A stretch of 64,000 nt of DNA from a virus. Lineage: Duplodnaviria > Caudoviricetes. A program made the position numbers and the translations under genes. Below the pieces are notes generated by a model. It saw nothing but the letters and a program-made list of their open reading frames with translations. It was not told the DNA's origin and did not search any database. Positions 2,853-61,712 of the stretch are shown one piece after another (position 1 is the first letter of the stretch; each line of letters opens with the position of its first letter). The stretch lies in IMG/VR virus record IMGVR_UViG_3300022602_000025; one strand, 5' to 3'.

Positions 2853-2892
2853 GGCAAGGAACTCGTTTAGTGGGGTGTACGTAACACTCCAC

Positions 2893-2964
2893 ACCATATA
2901 CAAGCACATTGTTCGGCATGCTGGGCCCTAGGTATAACCTCCAGTCAGTGTGCTTATATATGGT
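2893..2964 (+). ncRNA. Long-stem element of the AAGCACATT/AGTGTGCTT family
   Basis: ACCATATACAAGCACATT pairs with AGTGTGCTTATATATGGT around a 36-nt insert with its own hairpins. Confidence 0.5.
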
Positions 2965-2992
2965 TGACAAAACCAAAAAGAGACAGTATAAT
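2964..2992 (+). promoter_or_regulatory. sigma70-type promoter
   Basis: TTGACA-17 nt-TATAAT. A near-identical copy lies at 5311-5339. Confidence 0.85.
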
Positions 2993-3016
2993 ATATACTG
3001 TTCTTTAAAAAATTGT

Positions 3017-3182
3017 CATTACTTGAAAACATTAGTAGGTATCGTGTATGGACGCATACACTAGGCGGGCTGGTCGGGCCATCGATCAGTCCTGAGAAAA
3101 CTAGGGCAATGGCTTAGGACTTCGTCGCGGAAGACTCCAAAATTCGCTTAACCTATAGGGTTATTAGTGTTTTCAATTAATG
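3017..3182 (+). ncRNA. Candidate multibranch ncRNA transcribed from the 2964 promoter
   Basis: TTGAAAACATTA/TAGTGTTTTCAA closing stem. Internal GTGTATG/CATACAC, GCTGGTCG/CGATCAGT and GTCCTGAG/CTTAGGAC helices. No ORF. Confidence 0.55.
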
Positions 3183-4076: not shown

Positions 4077-4167
4077 GGAAGAGCAAGCCAATTGGTGATG
4101 GCAGCTGTCTTGAAAACAGTCGAGCGTTAATAGCGCCTTGAGGGTTCAACTCCGTCCTCTTCCGCCA
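4077..4167 (+). tRNA. tRNA-Ser(TGA)
   Basis: GGAAGAG/CTCTTCC, loop CT-TGA-AA, long variable arm, G73-CCA. Confidence 0.92.
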
Positions 4168-4185
4168 AACATTAAGGAGAGCTGT

Positions 4186-4329
4186 ATGAACAAGCAAGAC
4201 GAAACGATTGCCAAAGCATACGGCAACATACCTAAGGAAGTTGGATACACTATTGATTTTTCATTTATTCCAACATGGAGAGGAATTAAGTACTACTGGT
4301 ATAAAGTAGTACGAAAAGTAACAAGATAA
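4186..4329 (+). CDS. Small hypothetical protein
   Basis: AAGGAG SD before ATG 4186. The track's upstream extension lies within tRNA-Ser. Confidence 0.6.
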   Translation: MNKQDETIAKAYGNIPKEVGYTIDFSFIPTWRGIKYYWYKVVRKVTR

Positions 4330-4337
4330 AGAATTAC

Positions 4338-4432
4338 GGAGAGTTGGGTGAGCTGGCTGAAACCACCTTCCTGCTAAGAAGACATACGGGCCAAAACCTG
4401 TATCGAGGGTTCGAATCCCTCACTCTCCGCCA
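4338..4432 (+). tRNA. tRNA-Ser(GCT)
   Basis: GGAGAGT/ACTCTCC, loop CT-GCT-AA, long variable arm, GCCA. Confidence 0.92.
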
Positions 4433-4440
4433 AAGTTTTA

Positions 4441-4554
4441 TGCTTGCTGAGTAGCTACACTGGAACACCGAAAAACTTGCCAAAGTCGACCAAAGCAAGG
4501 ACCGGCCAGGAAGAGAAGGGCTATCGTGGATTCAAGCGCCACAGCGAGCACCCA
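4441..4554 (+). ncRNA. Atypical 114-nt tRNA-like RNA (8-bp acceptor, T-arm, CCA, no normal anticodon arm)
   Basis: TGCTTGCT/AGCGAGCA + C + CCA. T-arm GTGGA-TTCAAGC-GCCAC. CTTGC/GCAAG stem with a 14-nt loop. Confidence 0.55.
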
Positions 4555-4558
4555 ATAT

Positions 4559-4638
4559 GGAACGGTGGCAGAGCATGGTCCAATGCAATCGCCTGCAAAG
4601 CGATAAAACCGTAGGTTCAAATCCTACCCGTTCCTCCA
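4559..4638 (+). tRNA. tRNA-Cys(GCA)
   Basis: GGAACGG/CCGTTCC, arm ATCGC-CTGCAAA-GCGAT, U73-CCA. Confidence 0.92.
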
Positions 4639-4640
4639 GT

Positions 4641-4779
4641 TTTGCTTATGTGCGTACGGTAACCCATATGTGATTAGCGAGTCGACCAAGACACTTGTTA
4701 ATGTACCTGATGTCCGTAGCAGGCTTGGCTACATGCCGGGCTCCGCACACGACTTGGAAATTGTGTAACGGTAAGCAAA
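4641..4779 (+). ncRNA. Candidate structured ncRNA between tRNA-Cys and tRNA-Trp
   Basis: TTTGCTTA/TAAGCAAA closing stem, GTGCG/CGCAC, GTAGC/GCTAC and ACACGA/TTGTGT helices. Confidence 0.45.
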
Positions 4780-4790
4780 TTCATTTTTAT

Positions 4791-4869: not shown

Positions 4870-4968
4870 GCCCCTGTAGCTTAATGGTAAAGAAACGAGC
4901 TTATACCTCGTCATAGCACCGTCTAGATAAGGCGGAGTGTGGGGGTTCGAGTCCCTCCAGGGGCACCA
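4870..4968 (+). tRNA. tRNA with TAT anticodon (Ile AUA) and a 29-nt variable region
   Basis: GCCCCTG/CAGGGGC, arm ACGAG-CTTATAC-CTCGT, variable hairpin CCGTCT/AGGCGG, A73-CCA. Confidence 0.75.
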
Positions 4969-5561: not shown

Positions 5562-5866
5562 GCGGCGGACATTTCGACTATAAGCAATATAAAATTGGCT
5601 ACATCGCAGACGAAGTAGAGCAATTAATCATAGACAATGATAGTGATGAACGCAATGAGTGGGGTGACGTTAAAGGTTATCATTTTACGCCAGAAACTAT
5701 TGAGGAATTCAAAAAAGGGCTTACAATACTAAGGCAAGCACACATATACGCACAGCGTATTGATTGGTTGGTTAGTGGCGATGACGGCGAGGATAGTTTT
5801 CATAGACGTTTGAAACAAGAGTTGGAGAATTTAAATGCCGTGGATACAAAATATAGCGTTAGCTGA
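5558..5866 (+). CDS. Hypothetical protein
   Basis: GAGGAG SD before ATG 5558 (MSGGHFDY...). Confidence 0.65.
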   Translation: MSGGHFDYKQYKIGYIADEVEQLIIDNDSDERNEWGDVKGYHFTPETIEEFKKGLTILRQAHIYAQRIDWLVSGDDGEDSFHRRLKQELENLNAVDTKYSVS

Positions 5867-6326
5867 TGTAGGCAAAGGCCATCATTTTGATGCCGGCTTT
5901 AATTCTATGCTGATCCAGATTGTGGATCCTGCGATGGCATTTCCTACTCCAAAGCACCAGTTTAAAGAAGTACATCAATTTGAGTTCTTAGATCTTGAGC
6001 GAGATGATCCTTGGGGCGAAGAATTTAAAATTACGGACGAACAAGCAGAAAAATTAGTTCAATTGCTACAACATGCTCTTGACAATCATATGCAAGTCGT
6101 AGTACACTGCGTTGCTGGAGTATGCAGATCAGGAGCAGTTTGCGAAGTAGGTGTGATGATGGGCTTTGATGATACGGAAGTTTTCCGTAGTCCTAATCTG
6201 CTTGTAAAGCACAAGATGATGAAAGCACTTGGTTGGACATATGACGAAAACGAACCTCATACTATAAATGGTATAGAGCTAGATTCTGGATTGATCGTTC
6301 CAAAAAATTACGAAGGTGATATATGA
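5835..6326 (+). CDS. Dual-specificity/PTP-like phosphatase
   Basis: Catalytic loop VVVHCVAGVCRSG (HCxxGxxRS). Confidence 0.8.
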   Translation: MPWIQNIALADVGKGHHFDAGFNSMLIQIVDPAMAFPTPKHQFKEVHQFEFLDLERDDPWGEEFKITDEQAEKLVQLLQHALDNHMQVVVHCVAGVCRSGAVCEVGVMMGFDDTEVFRSPNLLVKHKMMKALGWTYDENEPHTINGIELDSGLIVPKNYEGDI

Positions 6327-6778: not shown

Positions 6779-6782
6779 AAAC

Positions 6783-6979
6783 CCGGGTTACACTTTGTAC
6801 TGTTAATTAAAGTGGGTAATTGCCAAACCATAAGAGCACGGTGCATTGGATCTACCGTAAGGCCCAGGTAGGGCGACTTAAGAAATCACAAAGGCGAGAA
6901 CACTAGTCGTCTAGATAGAAACAACGTGTGGACAGGGTAACAACTCAGTCCGGGGCTTATGTGGTGTAAGTAGCCGGAC
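6783..6979 (+). ncRNA. Candidate ~200-nt structured ncRNA
   Basis: ORF-free. GTTACACTTT/AAAGTGGGTAAT 5' hairpin, CTACC/GGTAG, and a GTCCGG..CCGGAC 3' hairpin. Confidence 0.45.
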
Positions 6980-7060
6980 ACTTTATTAAAGCACATTAGG
7001 CGACATCCGAGTATTCTGGAATAGTAAGGTGGCATAGCCCCTAGTGTGCTTCAATAAAGT
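6980..7060 (+). ncRNA. Long-stem element of the AAGCACATT/AGTGTGCTT family
   Basis: ACTTTATTAAAGCACATT pairs with AGTGTGCTTCAATAAAGT around a 45-nt insert. Confidence 0.5.
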
Positions 7061-7141
7061 ACGTTTAACTTAAATATAATTTAGGTAGTAAGGACAGGGC
7101 ACCACTGTTATGAAAAGCCATAGATGTACTTTAAAAAATAT

Positions 7142-9024: not shown

Positions 9025-10950
9025 ATGAGCAAAATCATCGGTATCGACTTAGGTACAACTAATAGCTGCGTAGCTATCATCGAGAACGGAACTTCCAAAG
9101 TAATTGAAAATTCAGAAGGCGCAAGAACAACGCCCTCAATCGTCGCCTATATGGATGACGGTGAAGTAATCATTGGAGCACCTGCAAAACGCCAGGCCGT
9201 TACAAATCCAAAAAATACAATCTATGCCGCCAAGCGTTTAATTGGTCGTAGATTTTCAGAAGATGCTGTACAAAAAGACATTGACCTAATGCCTTACAAA
9301 ATCGTAGCGGCAGACAATGGTGACGCATGGGTAGAAGTGCGTGACGACAAACTAGCACCTCCACAAATTAGTGCTGAAGTTCTTCGCAAGATGAAGAAGA
9401 CCGCAGAAGACTATTTGGGTGAACCAGTAACACAGGCTGTTATTACAGTACCAGCTTACTTCAATGACTCACAACGTCAAGCAACTAAAGATGCAGGTAA
9501 GATCGCAGGTTTAGAAGTTCTGCGTATTATCAACGAGCCAACAGCGGCTGCACTAGCGTATGGTGTTGACAAACAGGATAAAGCAGATCGCAAGATTGCA
9601 GTTTACGACTTGGGTGGTGGTACATTTGACGTATCTATCATTGAAATCGCAAACGTAGATGGCGACAAACAAATTGAAGTTCTTTCAACTAACGGAGATA
9701 CATTCCTAGGTGGTGAAGACTTTGACCAACGTATTATGGATCACATTATCGCAGAATTCAAGAAAGAATCTGGTGTTGATCTAAGCAAGGATGTACTTGC
9801 ACTACAGCGTCTAAAAGATGCGGCTGAAAAGGCTAAGATTGAGTTGTCTAGCTCAATGCAAACAGAAGTTAACTTGCCTTACATTACAGCAGATGCAAGC
9901 GGTCCAAAACATTTGAATATTAAAATCACTCGTAGCAAGTTTGAAAATCTTGTTGAAGAATTGATTGAGCGTAGTTTGGTTCCATGCCGTACAGCTCTAG
10001 CAGATGCTAAAGTTAGTGCTAGCGACATTGACGAAGTTATCCTAGTCGGTGGACAAACACGTATGCCTAAAGTACAAGAAGCAGTTGAGAAACTGTTTGG
10101 CAAGGCTCCACGTAAAGACGTTAACCCAGACGAAGCTGTTGCTGTTGGTGCGGCTATCCAAGGACAAGTTTTAGGTGGTGATCGTACAGACGTTCTATTG
10201 CTAGACGTTACTCCACTAAGCCTAGGTATTGAAACTTCAGGCGGTGTGATGGCTAAGGTTGTAACTAAGAATACAACTATTCCTAGCAAGAAAACAGAAA
10301 TGTTCTCAACAGCAGAAGACAACCAACCTGCCGTAACACTAAAAGTTTACCAAGGTGAGCGTGAAGTTGCTAAACACAACAAACTGTTGGGCGAGTTTAA
10401 TCTAGATGGTATTATGCCAGCACGTAGAGGTGAGCCTCAAATTGAAGTAACCTTTGATATTGATGCTAACGGTATTCTTAAAGTAAGTGCTACAGATAAG
10501 AAAACTGGTAAGGAAAACAACATCACGATTAAAGCCAACTCTGGTCTAAGTGATGATGAAATCCAACAAATGATCAAAGATGCAGAAGCTAACGCTGAAG
10601 CAGATGCTAAGGCTGTTGCTGTTGTTAAACAACGTAACCAAACTGAAGCGTTCACTGGAATCATTCGTGAGCATCGTGCAAAACACGGCGATACAGCTCT
10701 AACAGACGAAGAACGTACTTTGTTTGATGAATGTATGGCTAAGCTAGACGAAGCTGACAAGGGCGACGACGTTGAAGCTATGCAAACAGCATTTAACGAA
10801 GTGTTTGACAAGTGTTCTAAGATTATTGAAAAGCTACAACAAGCTGACGATGATGCAAGAGCTCGTGAAAAGGCAGCTGAGGAAGAAGCTAAGAAAGCCG
10901 CTGAAGCAGCGACTGCAGAAGCGACAGACAAACCGGCTGATGCTGAGTAA
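9025..10950 (+). CDS. dnaK: Hsp70 chaperone DnaK
   Basis: [37 protein letters not shown] and [11 protein letters not shown] motifs. Confidence 0.99.
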
Positions 10951-30090: not shown

Positions 30091-30618
30091 ATGGCAAAAT
30101 TTTACTCAACAAAAACTTACGGAAACGATCGCGGCTTATCATGCTGTTTTAGACAATGGCGTGCCACACATAGCCACTGCTCAACACTACACGGTTATTC
30201 AATTGGCATCAAATTAATCTTTGAATGTGATACACTAGATGACAAAAACTGGTGTATGGACTTTGGCGGACTCAAAGAATTTAAAGAGTGGGCAGATCAT
30301 ATGTTTGATCATACTTTGGTAATTGCTGAAGATGACCCAATGCTAGATCGATTCAAAGAAATGTCAGGCTGGAGTTCAAATCCAGAGCATGATAGTAACC
30401 CAGAACGTGTACAAGTAGAACCATTCCGCCGTCAAGGCATCTGTGATTTACGTATTGTACCTGCTGTTGGTTGCGAAATGTTTGCCAAAATGGCATACGA
30501 CAAAATGGCTGAATTGCTAGCTTCTGGCAATATGCGTTATCCAATCAATCCAAGTGTGCGTGTAAAAAGCGTAGAAGTATTTGAGCACGGTGCGAATTCC
30601 GCTACATACGAAGGTTGA
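30091..30618 (+). CDS. queD: 6-carboxytetrahydropterin synthase (QueD/PTPS family)
   Basis: HCSTLHGY, DFGGLK, FDHT and V..VEVFEH T-fold motifs. Confidence 0.85.
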   Translation: MAKFYSTKTYGNDRGLSCCFRQWRATHSHCSTLHGYSIGIKLIFECDTLDDKNWCMDFGGLKEFKEWADHMFDHTLVIAEDDPMLDRFKEMSGWSSNPEHDSNPERVQVEPFRRQGICDLRIVPAVGCEMFAKMAYDKMAELLASGNMRYPINPSVRVKSVEVFEHGANSATYEG

Positions 30619-30643
30619 TCTTTACCAAAGTCTGTGTTATAAT
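30615..30643 (+). promoter_or_regulatory. sigma70-type promoter (leaderless gene follows)
   Basis: TTGATC-17-TATAAT with TG extension, ATG after a 6-nt gap. Confidence 0.7.
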
Positions 30644-30649
30644 AGTACT

Positions 30650-31687
30650 ATGACACAGACACTTAAACGCATTGGATTTTGTTGTAAATGGATCGATGGT
30701 CCTAGCCAAATTGACGGGATCAAACAAACTGACACAGCAAAGAAATATAACACCGGTACAACTACTGTCGCTTGGTTAAATAGACAAACAAGGGATGTAG
30801 CGGAGCAAAAGTTATGGGACCTAATGGTAGGCAATATCGAGGCAACTCGATTATTAGTAGAGCGTGTCGGGCAGCTTGAGCCTTCTCTTCGCATGGTTAG
30901 GATTAGCAGCGACATCCTGCCTGTTTATACTCACGCTGATTTTGCTGATTATTGGCGTAAACCTGACGTTGTTTCATACGCCGAAACCCACTTTAAGAGA
31001 GTGGGTGATATTGCTCGCGATCGCGGTGTGCGGCTTTCTTTTCATCCTGGGCAGTTTACTGTGTTGGCAAGTGATAACCCAGGAATTGTCGAGCGGTCGA
31101 TTGCAGAATTTGAATACCACGCAGACATGGCCCGCTGGATGGGGTACGGAAGAAACTTCCAAGACTTCAAAATCAACGTGCATATCGCCGGACGTCAAGG
31201 ACCAGAAGGCATCCGCAGAGCGTACCAAAAACTAAGTCCAGAAGCACGTAACTGTATTACAATCGAAAACGAAGAAAACTCTTGGGGGTTAGATGACTGC
31301 TTATCTATTTCTGATATTGTCCCTATTGTGCTTGATATACACCATCATTGGATCAGGGAAGGAGAATACATCGATCCTACTGACCAAAGAGTACAAAAGG
31401 TTGTTGATAGTTGGCGTGGTGTGCGCCCTGCTTGCCATTACTCCGTATCTAGAGAAGATGTCTTGGATATTAGAGAACATCCCACTAGGCCCGAAATGGC
31501 CCTGCTGTTAGAGCGAGGTTACAAAAAACAAAAACTCCGTGCTCATTCTAATTTCTATTGGAATAGAGATGTTAATGAATGGGCACTGAGTTTCTTGGAT
31601 AAGTTTGATATCCAGTGCGAAAGCAAGGCTAAAAATCTAGCTAGTTTCGCACTTGCCAAGCAAGCAAAAGAGCTTAACTTGCTTTAG
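30650..31687 (+). CDS. uvsE: UV damage endonuclease
   Basis: RIGFCC, RISSDILP, RLSFHPGQF, TIENEE and VLDIHHH motifs. Confidence 0.92.
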   Translation: MTQTLKRIGFCCKWIDGPSQIDGIKQTDTAKKYNTGTTTVAWLNRQTRDVAEQKLWDLMVGNIEATRLLVERVGQLEPSLRMVRISSDILPVYTHADFADYWRKPDVVSYAETHFKRVGDIARDRGVRLSFHPGQFTVLASDNPGIVERSIAEFEYHADMARWMGYGRNFQDFKINVHIAGRQGPEGIRRAYQKLSPEARNCITIENEENSWGLDDCLSISDIVPIVLDIHHHWIREGEYIDPTDQRVQKVVDSWRGVRPACHYSVSREDVLDIREHPTRPEMALLLERGYKKQKLRAHSNFYWNRDVNEWALSFLDKFDIQCESKAKNLASFALAKQAKELNLL

Positions 31688-59432: not shown

Positions 59433-61712
59433 ATGTTAGAACCAAATAGCGATTTAGAAGCTGTATTTGATCGTGCTGTTAAAATTGCCGCAAAAAACAA
59501 ACACGAGTATATTACGTTAGAACACTTCTTATACAGTTTAATCATTGATTCAAAATTTGAACAGTTGCTGGGCGACTTTGGTGCAGATCTTGAATCTCTT
59601 AAAACTAACCTAGAAACATATATTGCAACAAAGCTAACTGAAATTGTTGTAGAAGATTTAAATCAGCGTCCTAAGAAAACACACTCAATGGAACGTATGT
59701 TAAATCGTGCGTTTACACAAGTGTTGTTTAGCGGTCGTTCAACTATCAGTCCTGTTGATTGCTTCATCAGTATGTTTGCTGAAAAGAAAAGTCATGCCGC
59801 ACATTTTATGCGTCAGGCAAAAATTGACAAAGATGCGTTCATTGACTATATTGGACAAGAAAAGACATCTTCAGAAAATCTTCCAGAAGATGTAAATTCT
59901 ACCCAACTTGAACGTATGTTGGTTCAATTCTGTACTAACCTTAATAACAAAGTTAAGCAGAAGAAAATTGATCCAGTTATTGGTCGTGAAAAAGAAATTG
60001 AAGAAATGCAATTGGTTCTTGCACGTAGAAACAAATGCAACGTCATGATGATTGGCGATCCTGGTGTAGGTAAGACAGCGATTGCTGAAGGTCTTGCACG
60101 TAACATCGTTGAAGGCAAGGTTCCTAAATTTATTGCTGACCATACCGTGTACGCATTAGATATCTCAGCTATGCTTGCTGGCAGTAAGTATCGCGGAGAT
60201 TTTGAAGAACGCTTGAAGATGGTTATCAACGCTCTTGAAAAGAAAAAGAATTGCATCTTGTTTATTGACGAAGCACACATGATTAACGGTGCAGGTGCTG
60301 TAAGCGGTAGTTCAAACGATATGGCTAATATGCTGAAACCTGCACTAGGCAAAGGCACTATTAAAGTTGTTGCGTCGACTACATGGGACGAATATCGTAA
60401 GCACTTTGAAAAGGATCGTGCATTGATGCGCCGTTTCCAACGTGTTGTGATTGACGAGCCAAGCGAAGCAACAGCTATTAAGATCCTTAAAGGTCTTAAG
60501 AAGTATTACGAAAAACATCATAATGTTAAGATCACTAATCAAGCGATCATTGATGCTGTCAAATATAGTATCAAGTATATGCCAGATAAGCACTTACCAG
60601 ACAAAGCTATTGATTTGATTGATTGTGCATCTGCTCGTTTTAAAGTACGTGACGAGGAAGGTGGCATTGTTGATCATGATGAAATCGTTTTTGAAGTATC
60701 TAAGATCGCAAATCTTCCAACAGAACAAGTTGCATCAAAAGAAAATAAAAACCTGCGTGACCTTGATAAGAACATGCGTGGTAAAGTGTTTGGCCAAGAA
60801 AAAGCGATTGATATTTTGTTAGACAAAATTTATATCGCACAAGCAGGATTAAAATCTATCAACAAGCCAGTTGGAAACTTCTTGTTCGTAGGTCCTACGG
60901 GCTGTGGTAAGACTGAGACAGCAAAAGTATTGGCAGAATCAATGGGAGTACAACTTGTACGATTTGATATGAGTGAGTTCCAAGAACAACACTCTGTTGC
61001 CAAGTTCATTGGTGCTCCTCCGGGCTATGTTGGCTTTGAGGATAATGCAGGTCAACTTGTTACTAAACTACAAGAACACCCAAACTGTATCTTGTTATTA
61101 GACGAAATTGAAAAAGCACATCCAAGTGTAAGCAACGTATTGTTAGGATTGATGGACAATGGCTTTGTAACAGGATCTAATGGTAAGAAAGCAGATGCTC
61201 GTAACGCTATCGTTATCCTAACTTCAAACTTAGGTGCAAGTGATGCTGAAAAGAACGGTATTGGATTTGGTAGCATTGATAAAGACGGCGAAATTAACAA
61301 TGCTGTTAATTCGTTCTTCAAACCAGAGTTCCGCAATCGTTTAGACGGTGTTATCCAGTTTGGTAAATTAGATCATGTTGTAATGATTAGGATCGTTAAG
61401 AAATTCGTTGACGAACTTAATGTGCAGATCAAAGATAAGAATGTGTTTGTTAAACCAGATACAGACGCTGTTGAATTGCTAATCAAGAAAGGCTTTAACA
61501 AGAAGATGGGTGCTCGTCCATTAGCTCGTGCTATTGATGAACATATCAAGAAACCGTTAAGTAAAGAAATTCTATTTGGAAGGTTAGTCAACGGCGGAGT
61601 TGTTGAAATCACTGCCGAGGACGATAAATTTAGTTTCAAGTTTGCTGACATATTGCCAGTTGAAAAAGCTAACATCGAAGAAGTTGAAGATGAAAGTTTA
61701 TCAAACGAATAA
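59433..61712 (+). CDS. clpA: ClpA-type AAA+ unfoldase
   Basis: N-domain, two AAA modules (GDPGVGKT, GPTGCGKT), IGF ClpP-docking loop, FKPEFRNRLD. Confidence 0.95.
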   Translation: MLEPNSDLEAVFDRAVKIAAKNKHEYITLEHFLYSLIIDSKFEQLLGDFGADLESLKTNLETYIATKLTEIVVEDLNQRPKKTHSMERMLNRAFTQVLFSGRSTISPVDCFISMFAEKKSHAAHFMRQAKIDKDAFIDYIGQEKTSSENLPEDVNSTQLERMLVQFCTNLNNKVKQKKIDPVIGREKEIEEMQLVLARRNKCNVMMIGDPGVGKTAIAEGLARNIVEGKVPKFIADHTVYALDISAMLAGSKYRGDFEERLKMVINALEKKKNCILFIDEAHMINGAGAVSGSSNDMANMLKPALGKGTIKVVASTTWDEYRKHFEKDRALMRRFQRVVIDEPSEATAIKILKGLKKYYEKHHNVKITNQAIIDAVKYSIKYMPDKHLPDKAIDLIDCASARFKVRDEEGGIVDHDEIVFEVSKIANLPTEQVASKENKNLRDLDKNMRGKVFGQEKAIDILLDKIYIAQAGLKSINKPVGNFLFVGPTGCGKTETAKVLAESMGVQLVRFDMSEFQEQHSVAKFIGAPPGYVGFEDNAGQLVTKLQEHPNCILLLDEIEKAHPSVSNVLLGLMDNGFVTGSNGKKADARNAIVILTSNLGASDAEKNGIGFGSIDKDGEINNAVNSFFKPEFRNRLDGVIQFGKLDHVVMIRIVKKFVDELNVQIKDKNVFVKPDTDAVELLIKKGFNKKMGARPLARAIDEHIKKPLSKEILFGRLVNGGVVEITAEDDKFSFKFADILPVEKANIEEVEDESLSNE

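Follow-up and report, generated by a model that had tools for sequence, protein, structure and literature searches.

A tRNA-like small RNA with a conserved palindromic loop, encoded among the tRNA genes of uncultured freshwater phages

INTRODUCTION

For 50 years it has been known that the tRNA clusters of phages can specify additional small RNAs, as exemplified by RNAC and RNAD of phage T4 (PMC3014915). The roles of these two molecules, which are also called the species 1 and 2 RNAs and are specified by rnaC and rnaD, are still unknown (PMC3014915). The element that we describe here is closest in kind to them. RNAC and RNAD are stable RNAs (139 and 119 nt), and like the element they are small and encoded in a phage tRNA cluster, on the strand of the tRNAs and a few bases from a tRNA, and the element shares this position and strand, being a non-tRNA RNA encoded within such a cluster. 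RNAC resembles it further in carrying a T-arm (GGGUUCGAAUCCC) near its 3' end. The likeness goes only so far, given that RNAD ends in CACCA whereas most members of the element family have no CCA end, and that no conserved palindromic loop was seen in the T4 RNAs. Homology to rnaC and rnaD was considered and rejected, given that our family model, R1, run with filters off on the T4 tRNA region, matched only tRNAs, and those weakly.

Other described RNAs offer comparisons for the palindromic loop. The HIV-1 DIS presents a six-base self-complementary sequence in a hairpin loop, and the palindrome differs by lineage. The element resembles it in showing a palindromic hexamer in a hairpin loop, one that differs among lineages and is kept by compensatory change, so that a dimer is predicted. 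The HIV-1 DIS, however, belongs to a viral genomic RNA and to genome packaging, whereas the element appears to be a small RNA that derives from tRNA and is encoded by a DNA phage, and its loop is larger (14 to 15 nt). ROOL and GOLLD are found in both phages and prophages, in many cases beside tRNA genes, and together with OLE they are ornate RNAs of about 500 to 800 nt that are believed to assemble into cages or larger structures. GOLLD, ROOL, and OLE form homo-oligomeric complexes, with kissing loops described (PMC12286853). They are far larger than the element, which has 110 nt, no Rfam match, and one palindromic loop that would allow only a simple dimer.

Non-decoding RNAs that imitate tRNA have a precedent in YrlA, which carries a T-arm and is accepted as a substrate by RNase P, in CCA addition, and by tRNA-modifying enzymes (PMC4201824). 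The defining traits of YrlA are its link to Ro60 and a stem, formed by the 5' and 3' ends, that binds Ro; the ends of the element lie at the acceptor-like helix, and no Ro60 gene was found in the complete or near-complete phage genomes that bear it. Here, we describe the position, distribution, and predicted fold of the element, and we weigh several explanations for its conservation.

RESULTS

The element lies in a phage tRNA array

The window, by which we mean the whole 64,000-nt stretch of DNA analyzed, is a phage-like genome piece, and the two sequencing runs that cover 95% of it are lake-water metagenomes. Its tRNA array comprises 20 tRNAs identified by Aragorn and 1 more called by Rfam alone, all of them on the + strand between positions 190 and 11263. 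The element sits in this array with a spacing that resembles that of a tRNA gene, and a search of the window with R1 found a single copy. The features discussed below are as follows.

4338-4432 (+), tRNA-Ser(GCU), upstream neighbor, 8 nt 5' of the element (Aragorn, Rfam)
4441-4550 (+), whole element, 110 nt, predicted three-way-junction RNA of family model R1 (137.7 bits over 4438-4554)
4441-4449 (+), P1 5' strand, closing (acceptor-like) helix, pairs with 4542-4550
4451-4455 (+), P2 5' strand GUAGC, within the invariant palindromic GUAGCUAC, pairs with 4520-4524
4460-4463 (+), P2b 5' strand CUGG, first pair (with 4509) covaries
4468-4470 (+), P2c 5' strand CCG, pairs with CGG at 4503-4505 (RNAalifold prediction, pairs invariant)
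4476-4480 (+), P3 5' strand CUUGC, apical stem, four of five pairs covary
4481-4494 (+), 14-nt apical loop CAAAGTCGACCAAA, flanks conserved (CAAW ... CAW)
4485-4490 (+), self-complementary hexamer GUCGAC, proposed kissing-loop dimerization site, palindromes kept across homologs
4495-4499 (+), P3 3' strand GCAAG, pairs with the P3 5' strand
4503-4505 (+), P2c 3' strand CGG (RNAalifold prediction)
4506-4509 (+), P2b 3' strand CCAG, pairs with the P2b 5' strand
4510-4519 (+), purine-rich joining strand GAAGAG-nn-GG, conserved
4520-4524 (+), P2 3' strand GCUAU, pairs with the P2 5' strand
4527-4541 (+), T-arm-like hairpin with a UGG/CCA stem, a purine-purine closing pair, and the invariant loop UUCAAGC (4531-4537)
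4542-4550 (+), P1 3' strand, abuts the T hairpin with zero bases between, as in tRNA
4551-4554 (+), C + CCA tail (C4551, then CCA at 4552-4554), no family feature
4559-4638 (+), tRNA-Cys(GCA), downstream neighbor, 8 nt past P1 (Aragorn, Rfam)

Known RNA models did not account for the element. Rfam 15 gave zero matches of any kind over the window copy at E <= 10, and at eight homologous loci (E <= 0.5) it returned only tRNAs and tmRNAs located elsewhere, together with chance matches. The tRNA models RF00005 and RF01852 did not match it (cmscan, E <= 10), and Aragorn, suggested as a check by the original prediction, made no tRNA call at 4441-4554. Neither Aragorn nor Rfam called a tmRNA (RF00023, RF04321, RF01850) on the element itself; in two related contigs, L088 and L143, tmRNA models matched flanking pieces, with the element in or before the intervening sequence. 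The original prediction had set aside both tRNA-Sec and tmRNA, and these exclusions hold, given that there is no RF01852 match and no UCA in a 7-nt loop on the one hand, and no tmRNA call and no G3.U70 on the other.

Assembled contigs from two lake metatranscriptome runs cover this region, in run X22 over the element at about 16- to 23-fold and in run X19 as a 259-nt contig over 4552-4810, in both cases in a form from which strand, ends, and true transcription are not readable. The X22 sequence carries the family-typical A>T at 4484 and thus derives from a relative rather than from the window phage.

A patchily distributed RNA family in freshwater phages

An exact 25-mer retrieved two IMG/VR contigs, L081 and L082, in which the element is 92 to 93% identical to the window copy, compared to 71 to 82% for the flanking genes, and in which the gene order differs. 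The three-way alignment with these contigs contains an invariant core and a covarying terminal helix, and the CCA is not conserved. An 18-base core motif was found in 77 IMG/VR contigs, to which a second motif added four, and in at least 119 metagenome stretches; at least 108 distinct core sequences were collected from IMG/VR and metagenome contigs. The genomes of 185,579 prokaryote species yielded a single match, on a 4-kb MAG contig, and when 50,697 deposited phage records were searched by BLAST, the element gave 20-base chance matches only. A literature search by core sequence and by concept found no description of the family, which could be included in a published catalog of 8,495 candidate IMG/VR RNAs (PMC10690425). 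The element thus represents an RNA family without a name, carried by uncultured freshwater phages, many of them jumbo phages. Sequence comparison indicates that the family is under strong purifying selection, and the random decay typical of a pseudogene, which would have spoken against the original prediction, is not what the homologs display.

R1 found one copy in each of four larger contigs, including genomes of 383 kb and 356 kb (100% and 96% complete), and zero copies in three complete, RtcB-bearing jumbo phage relatives (344 to 369 kb). Its only cross-matches were weak ones to the acceptor and T-arm of real tRNAs. The original prediction had also suggested a check for products of loop excision and RtcB ligation. 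RtcB is absent from four element-bearing contigs, two of which are 96 to 100% complete, and 80 loci fetched around relatives of RtcB yielded no copy of the element by BLAST, nhmmer, or R1. We therefore dropped the splicing idea, given that the element and RtcB do not co-occur in the complete or near-complete genomes examined. The family is an accessory single-copy gene, patchy in distribution and independent of RtcB.

Among 112 distinct genomic contexts, the element follows a tRNA CCA in 46, lies directly after a conserved RNA of about 208 nt in 42, occupies the intervening sequence of a permuted beta-type tmRNA gene in 7, and has another setting in 17. The slot it fills can differ between relatives, being the Ser-Cys gap in the window and the site after an RNA of the 6779 type in L081.

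Other RNAs and genes of the array

The conserved non-coding RNA of about 208 nt is present in the window at 6779-6986 (+), directly after tRNA-Leu(UAA), and ends in GUGGUGUAAGUAGCCGGACACUUUAU. It has no Rfam match and was found in 52 of the fetched family loci, immediately 5' of the element in the 42 contexts given above. A long hairpin at 6979-7061 (+), closed by ACUUUAUUAAAGCACA/UGUGCUUCAAUAAAGU, has pieces in 12 loci and fills the slot in which L081 has the element, the outer-stem sequence being identical. A second unannotated RNA lies at 4639-4790 (+) between tRNA-Cys and tRNA-Trp and is closed by the covarying helix UUUGCUUA/UAAGCAAA. It is 76 to 91% conserved in five loci (L100, L104, L111, L115, and L129) and has no Rfam match, and its GUCGAC is not conserved. 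The tRNA at 4870-4965 (+), scored at 57 bits by Rfam and missed by Aragorn, has the anticodon UAU, and its variable arm measures about 28 nt; Aragorn reads similar genes of 91 to 101 nt in L001, L004, L106, and L139 as tRNA-Ile(tat), and a tRNA-Ile(UAU) of type II shape is unusual. Permuted two-piece tmRNA genes of the betaproteobacterial type occur in the related phages L088 (4553-4994), L127, L155, L143, L145, and L142, with tags such as ANESVYKIAA and ANDEVYALAA, and the element fills the intervening sequence in L088, L127, and L155.

Several protein genes are interspersed among these RNAs. An RtcB RNA ligase gene (1665-2852, +) and a DSP/PTP-type phosphatase gene (5835-6326, +), the latter found again in 37 family loci, lie inside the array, which suggests a phage RNA-repair set. 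Also within the array span is a full-length DnaK/Hsp70 gene (835 bits; 9025-10950, +), and further downstream in the window are genes for a UvdE UV endonuclease (30581-31687, +) and a ClpB-like double AAA+ ATPase (59433-61712, +). The ORF-poor stretch from rtcB to tRNA-Met (2853-3181, +), parts of which are 81 to 94% conserved in 10 family loci, may hold further structured RNAs. A 63-codon ORF (4138-4329, +) flanked by two tRNA-Ser genes, its DNA 70 to 75% conserved in 10 loci, is a candidate for a small protein gene inside the array.

Covariation indicates a three-way junction with a tRNA-like half

The window element folds no better than its shuffles as a single sequence (MFE z-score, -0.5), and the case for a structure therefore rests on comparison. 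Pair counts were made on an alignment of 53 distinct sequences and repeated on one of 104, on which they held again. In the 53 sequences, 96.7% of the cells at proposed pairs were paired, compared to 89.0% for shuffles and 32 to 48% when the partners were slid, and 16 pairs showed two-sided changes. RNAalifold independently recovered P1, P2 (GUAGC/GCUAC), P2b (nUGG/CCAn'), P2c (CCG/CGG), and P3. The G.U pairs are compatible with the + strand alone, which is the strand of the tRNAs.

The covariation is not evenly distributed among the helices. All nine pairs of P1 had two-sided changes, with 93% of cells paired in the 53 sequences. The acceptor-like stem proposed originally is thus real but longer than the 8 bp ascribed to it, with 9 bp in the window, one of them a U.G pair, and 8 to 10 bp across the family. 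P2 cells were 99.8 to 100% paired, with a first pair that varies among G-C, G-U, and A-U; the remaining pairs are mostly invariant, so that covariation tests P2 weakly, and GUAGCUAC, being itself palindromic, could pair in an alternative way. The closing pair of P2b is A-U in 38, G-U in 37, and C-G in 28 of the 104 sequences and is unpaired in 1. P2c is beyond a covariation test given that its pairs are invariant. P3 occurs as CUUGC/GCAAG, CUUGU/ACAAG, CCGGU/ACCGG, or CUUCU/AGAAG, with 99.8% of cells paired, so the 5-bp stem around a 14-nt loop that had been noted earlier is confirmed. Together, P2, P2b, P2c, and P3 make an interrupted arm of about 17 bp with a tip loop of 14 to 15 nt, longer in some variants. 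A kink-turn was considered for the AAAUA/GAC internal loop and dropped, given that the consensus G.A pairs are missing.

The last hairpin fits best in a T-loop register, UGG-A-UUCAAGC-G-CCA, across the 104 sequences. One pair of its stem is G-C in 76 and A-U in 28 and is broken in none; the outermost pair is weak, being broken in 28, and the other register that RNAalifold proposed breaks more often. The loop, which the original prediction had recognized as a T loop (TTCAAGC), is invariant in the family. About 60 bases in unpaired regions are likewise invariant, and in the joining strand the GAAGAG and the GGG that follows it are invariant or nearly so in the 104 sequences. We infer that this strand (4510-4519) may touch the T-loop.

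The alignments therefore support a fold in which the closing helix of a three-way junction runs straight into a T-loop hairpin, as in the acceptor/T-arm half of a tRNA, while one conserved interrupted arm appears to stand in place of the D and anticodon arms. The likeness to tRNA lies in the acceptor-like helix stacked on a UUCRA-type T-loop hairpin that is contiguous with the acceptor 3' strand. The differences are that the T-like stem has only three Watson-Crick pairs and a purine-purine closure rather than G53-C61, and that there is no D stem, as had been predicted, no 7-nt anticodon loop, and no conserved CCA. A 5' segment, UAGCUACAnUGGAA, resembles the D-arm of the neighboring tRNAs but pairs elsewhere in the element. 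The acceptor/T domain of tRNA-Sec has 13 bp, which the 9 + 4 pairs of the element recall. The RNA is not read by the ribosome, and the view of it as a non-decoding RNA with tRNA-like parts was borne out, its acceptor-like helix leading into the T-loop hairpin and its tip loop having 14 to 15 nt or more.

The apical loop stays palindromic through sequence change

At one aligned position of the apical loop, most family members have GUCGAC, others have UCUAGA, ACUAGU, or AACGUU, and one has GUCGCGAC. Watson-Crick palindromes make up 64 of the 4,096 possible hexamers (1 in 64). UCUAGA and AACGUU are each combined with more than one version of the P3 stem, and the single-base variants GUUGAC and GUCGAU retain pairing through G.U wobble. 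When the hexamer was scored as pairs formed in trans, 98% of cells could pair, and all three pairs had two-sided changes. The calculated energy of the GUCGAC self-duplex is -7.5 kcal/mol. We consider that self-pairing explains the loop, given that there would be no need for the hexamer to stay palindromic while its sequence changes if it were a protein site or matched a target in another RNA. Two copies would pair loop to loop to give a symmetric homodimer with a tRNA-like end at each pole, a prediction from sequence that we regard as likely. In one divergent long-arm variant, a plain extended hairpin replaces the palindromic loop, and dimerization may thus not be universal.

Two other partners were considered for this loop and rejected. 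The 9-mer GTCGACCAA does recur at 4681, as originally observed, in the neighboring RNA at 4639-4790, but the hexamer there reads GUCGCC (GTCGCC in the DNA) in four of the five homologs of that RNA, and we do not regard it as a kissing partner. The UCUAGA in the variable-arm loop of the tRNA(UAU) at 4870-4965 is not conserved in homologs and is a coincidence.

DISCUSSION

Our preferred reading, to which we assign a probability of roughly 60%, is that the element, an accessory gene present once per genome in phage tRNA arrays, specifies a small, stable RNA that is of tRNA descent and does not decode. The RNA would be co-transcribed with the tRNAs of the array and released by host tRNA-processing enzymes, with RNase P acting at the next tRNA and 3' trimming proceeding to the helix; in the window, an RNase P cut at the 5' end of tRNA-Cys would set the 3' side of the element. 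We think this route of expression somewhat better than an even bet. What the RNA might then do is a more tentative matter. By analogy, the dimer could work in trans, its tRNA shape making it a decoy or an adaptor for some factor that binds tRNA, the candidates being a host tRNA-directed defense nuclease or a processing or modifying enzyme, and we put this forward as our best guess, with the odds against it. More speculative still is the proposal that the family constitutes a class of phage accessory RNA that is new, in which a symmetric dimer made of RNA alone, with two tRNA top halves held tip to tip, would mislead or occupy a tRNA-directed host factor. Such a factor could be the anticodon or acceptor nuclease of a defense system, an enzyme that modifies tRNA or adds CCA, or RNase P.

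The element could instead act purely in cis and be degraded afterward, either as a spacer whose own folding prevents neighboring tRNA or tmRNA precursors from misfolding or as a guide for cuts by RNase III or RNase P. Its occurrence in the intervening sequences of permuted tmRNA genes and in inter-tRNA spacers would agree with such a role, as would the complementary flanks (ACUUUAUA/UAUAAAGU or CCAUAUA/UAUAUGG) that in many copies prolong P1 by an outer helix into a long stem, the mean flank pairing energy being -6.1 kcal/mol compared to -2.8 kcal/mol for shuffles. However, the window copy has no outer helix, and the majority of tRNA junctions in these arrays lack the element. A spacer, moreover, needs neither the approximately 60 invariant unpaired bases nor an invariant T-loop, nor a loop that stays palindromic through five or more sequence changes. 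We consider a purely cis-acting cassette unlikely.

We also weighed an aminoacylated but non-decoding tRNA mimic ending in CCA, given that the original prediction noted the C discriminator and CCA and inferred a chargeable RNA. These bases are indeed present in the window copy, directly past the closing helix, but they are not a property of the family. In the 104 sequences, P1 is followed by CCT in 67, CCA in 6, CCC in 2 (the window copy being one of these), and other bases in 29, and the discriminator reading differs from copy to copy. Given that 64% of members have CCU after the helix and no more than about 6% have CCA, although the tRNAs beside family members all encode CCA, the C + CCA of the window appears to be an accident of one copy. 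It is true that 6 of the 104 homologs encode ACCA and that CC follows P1 in 73%, and tRNA-like Y RNAs can gain CCA post-transcriptionally (PMC4201824), so completion to CCA after transcription is conceivable. The element nevertheless has neither an anticodon nor an identity element such as G3.U70, and the tRNA, tRNA-Sec, and tmRNA models give no match on it. Aminoacylation is thus unsupported by the sequences at hand, and we regard the charged mimic as improbable.

A selfish mobile cassette, MITE-like or homing, that hops among the slots of tRNA arrays would account for the different positions in related phages (between the Ser and Cys genes in the window, after the 6779-type RNA in L081), for the different stem-closed insert that the window has at the slot used in L081, and for the inverted flanks with TATA in many copies. 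We find it decidedly improbable all the same, given that the element is single-copy in complete genomes, that its terminal helix covaries and offers no fixed end sequence for a transposase to recognize, that it shows no consistent linkage to a recombinase or endonuclease gene, and that the pattern of selection is that of an RNA structure.

A partnership with the Ro60 (Rsr) protein in the manner of Y RNAs was suggested to us by the RtcB gene near the element in the window. In Salmonella, RtcB is encoded in the rsr-yrlBA-rtcBA operon. YrlA RNAs of bacteria and phages, moreover, carry a tRNA-like module that lacks an anticodon (PMC4201824). Against this, Rfam gave no Y-RNA or YrlA match at E <= 10, RtcB is absent from two near-complete element-bearing genomes, and the ends of the element sit at the acceptor-like helix rather than at a Ro-binding stem. 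Nor was a TROVE/Ro60 gene (PF05731) found in the four element-bearing contigs, including the two that are 96 to 100% complete, whereas the control genomes gave matches, and we hold this reading to be highly improbable. Finally, a decaying tRNA pseudogene or a chance fold, which the z-score of -0.5 and the missing Aragorn call might have suggested, is refuted by the comparative data, namely, at least 108 distinct homologs with compensatory changes and near-invariant cores.

In summary, an accessory RNA gene of tRNA descent remains our preferred reading of the element. With more than 100 natural variants and a well-determined secondary structure, the family gives a better handle on the RNAs of phage arrays, and it offers a testable property, the self-pairing of its palindromic loop, together with the patchy single-copy distribution typical of accessory genes. 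As a compact natural RNA dimer, if the predicted pairing holds, it could serve structural work. For annotation, our findings indicate that the gaps of phage tRNA arrays hold several conserved RNA genes missed by current detectors. Should the RNA prove to be a decoy in the shape of a tRNA, phages would have a further, RNA-based means of countering host defenses that target tRNA.
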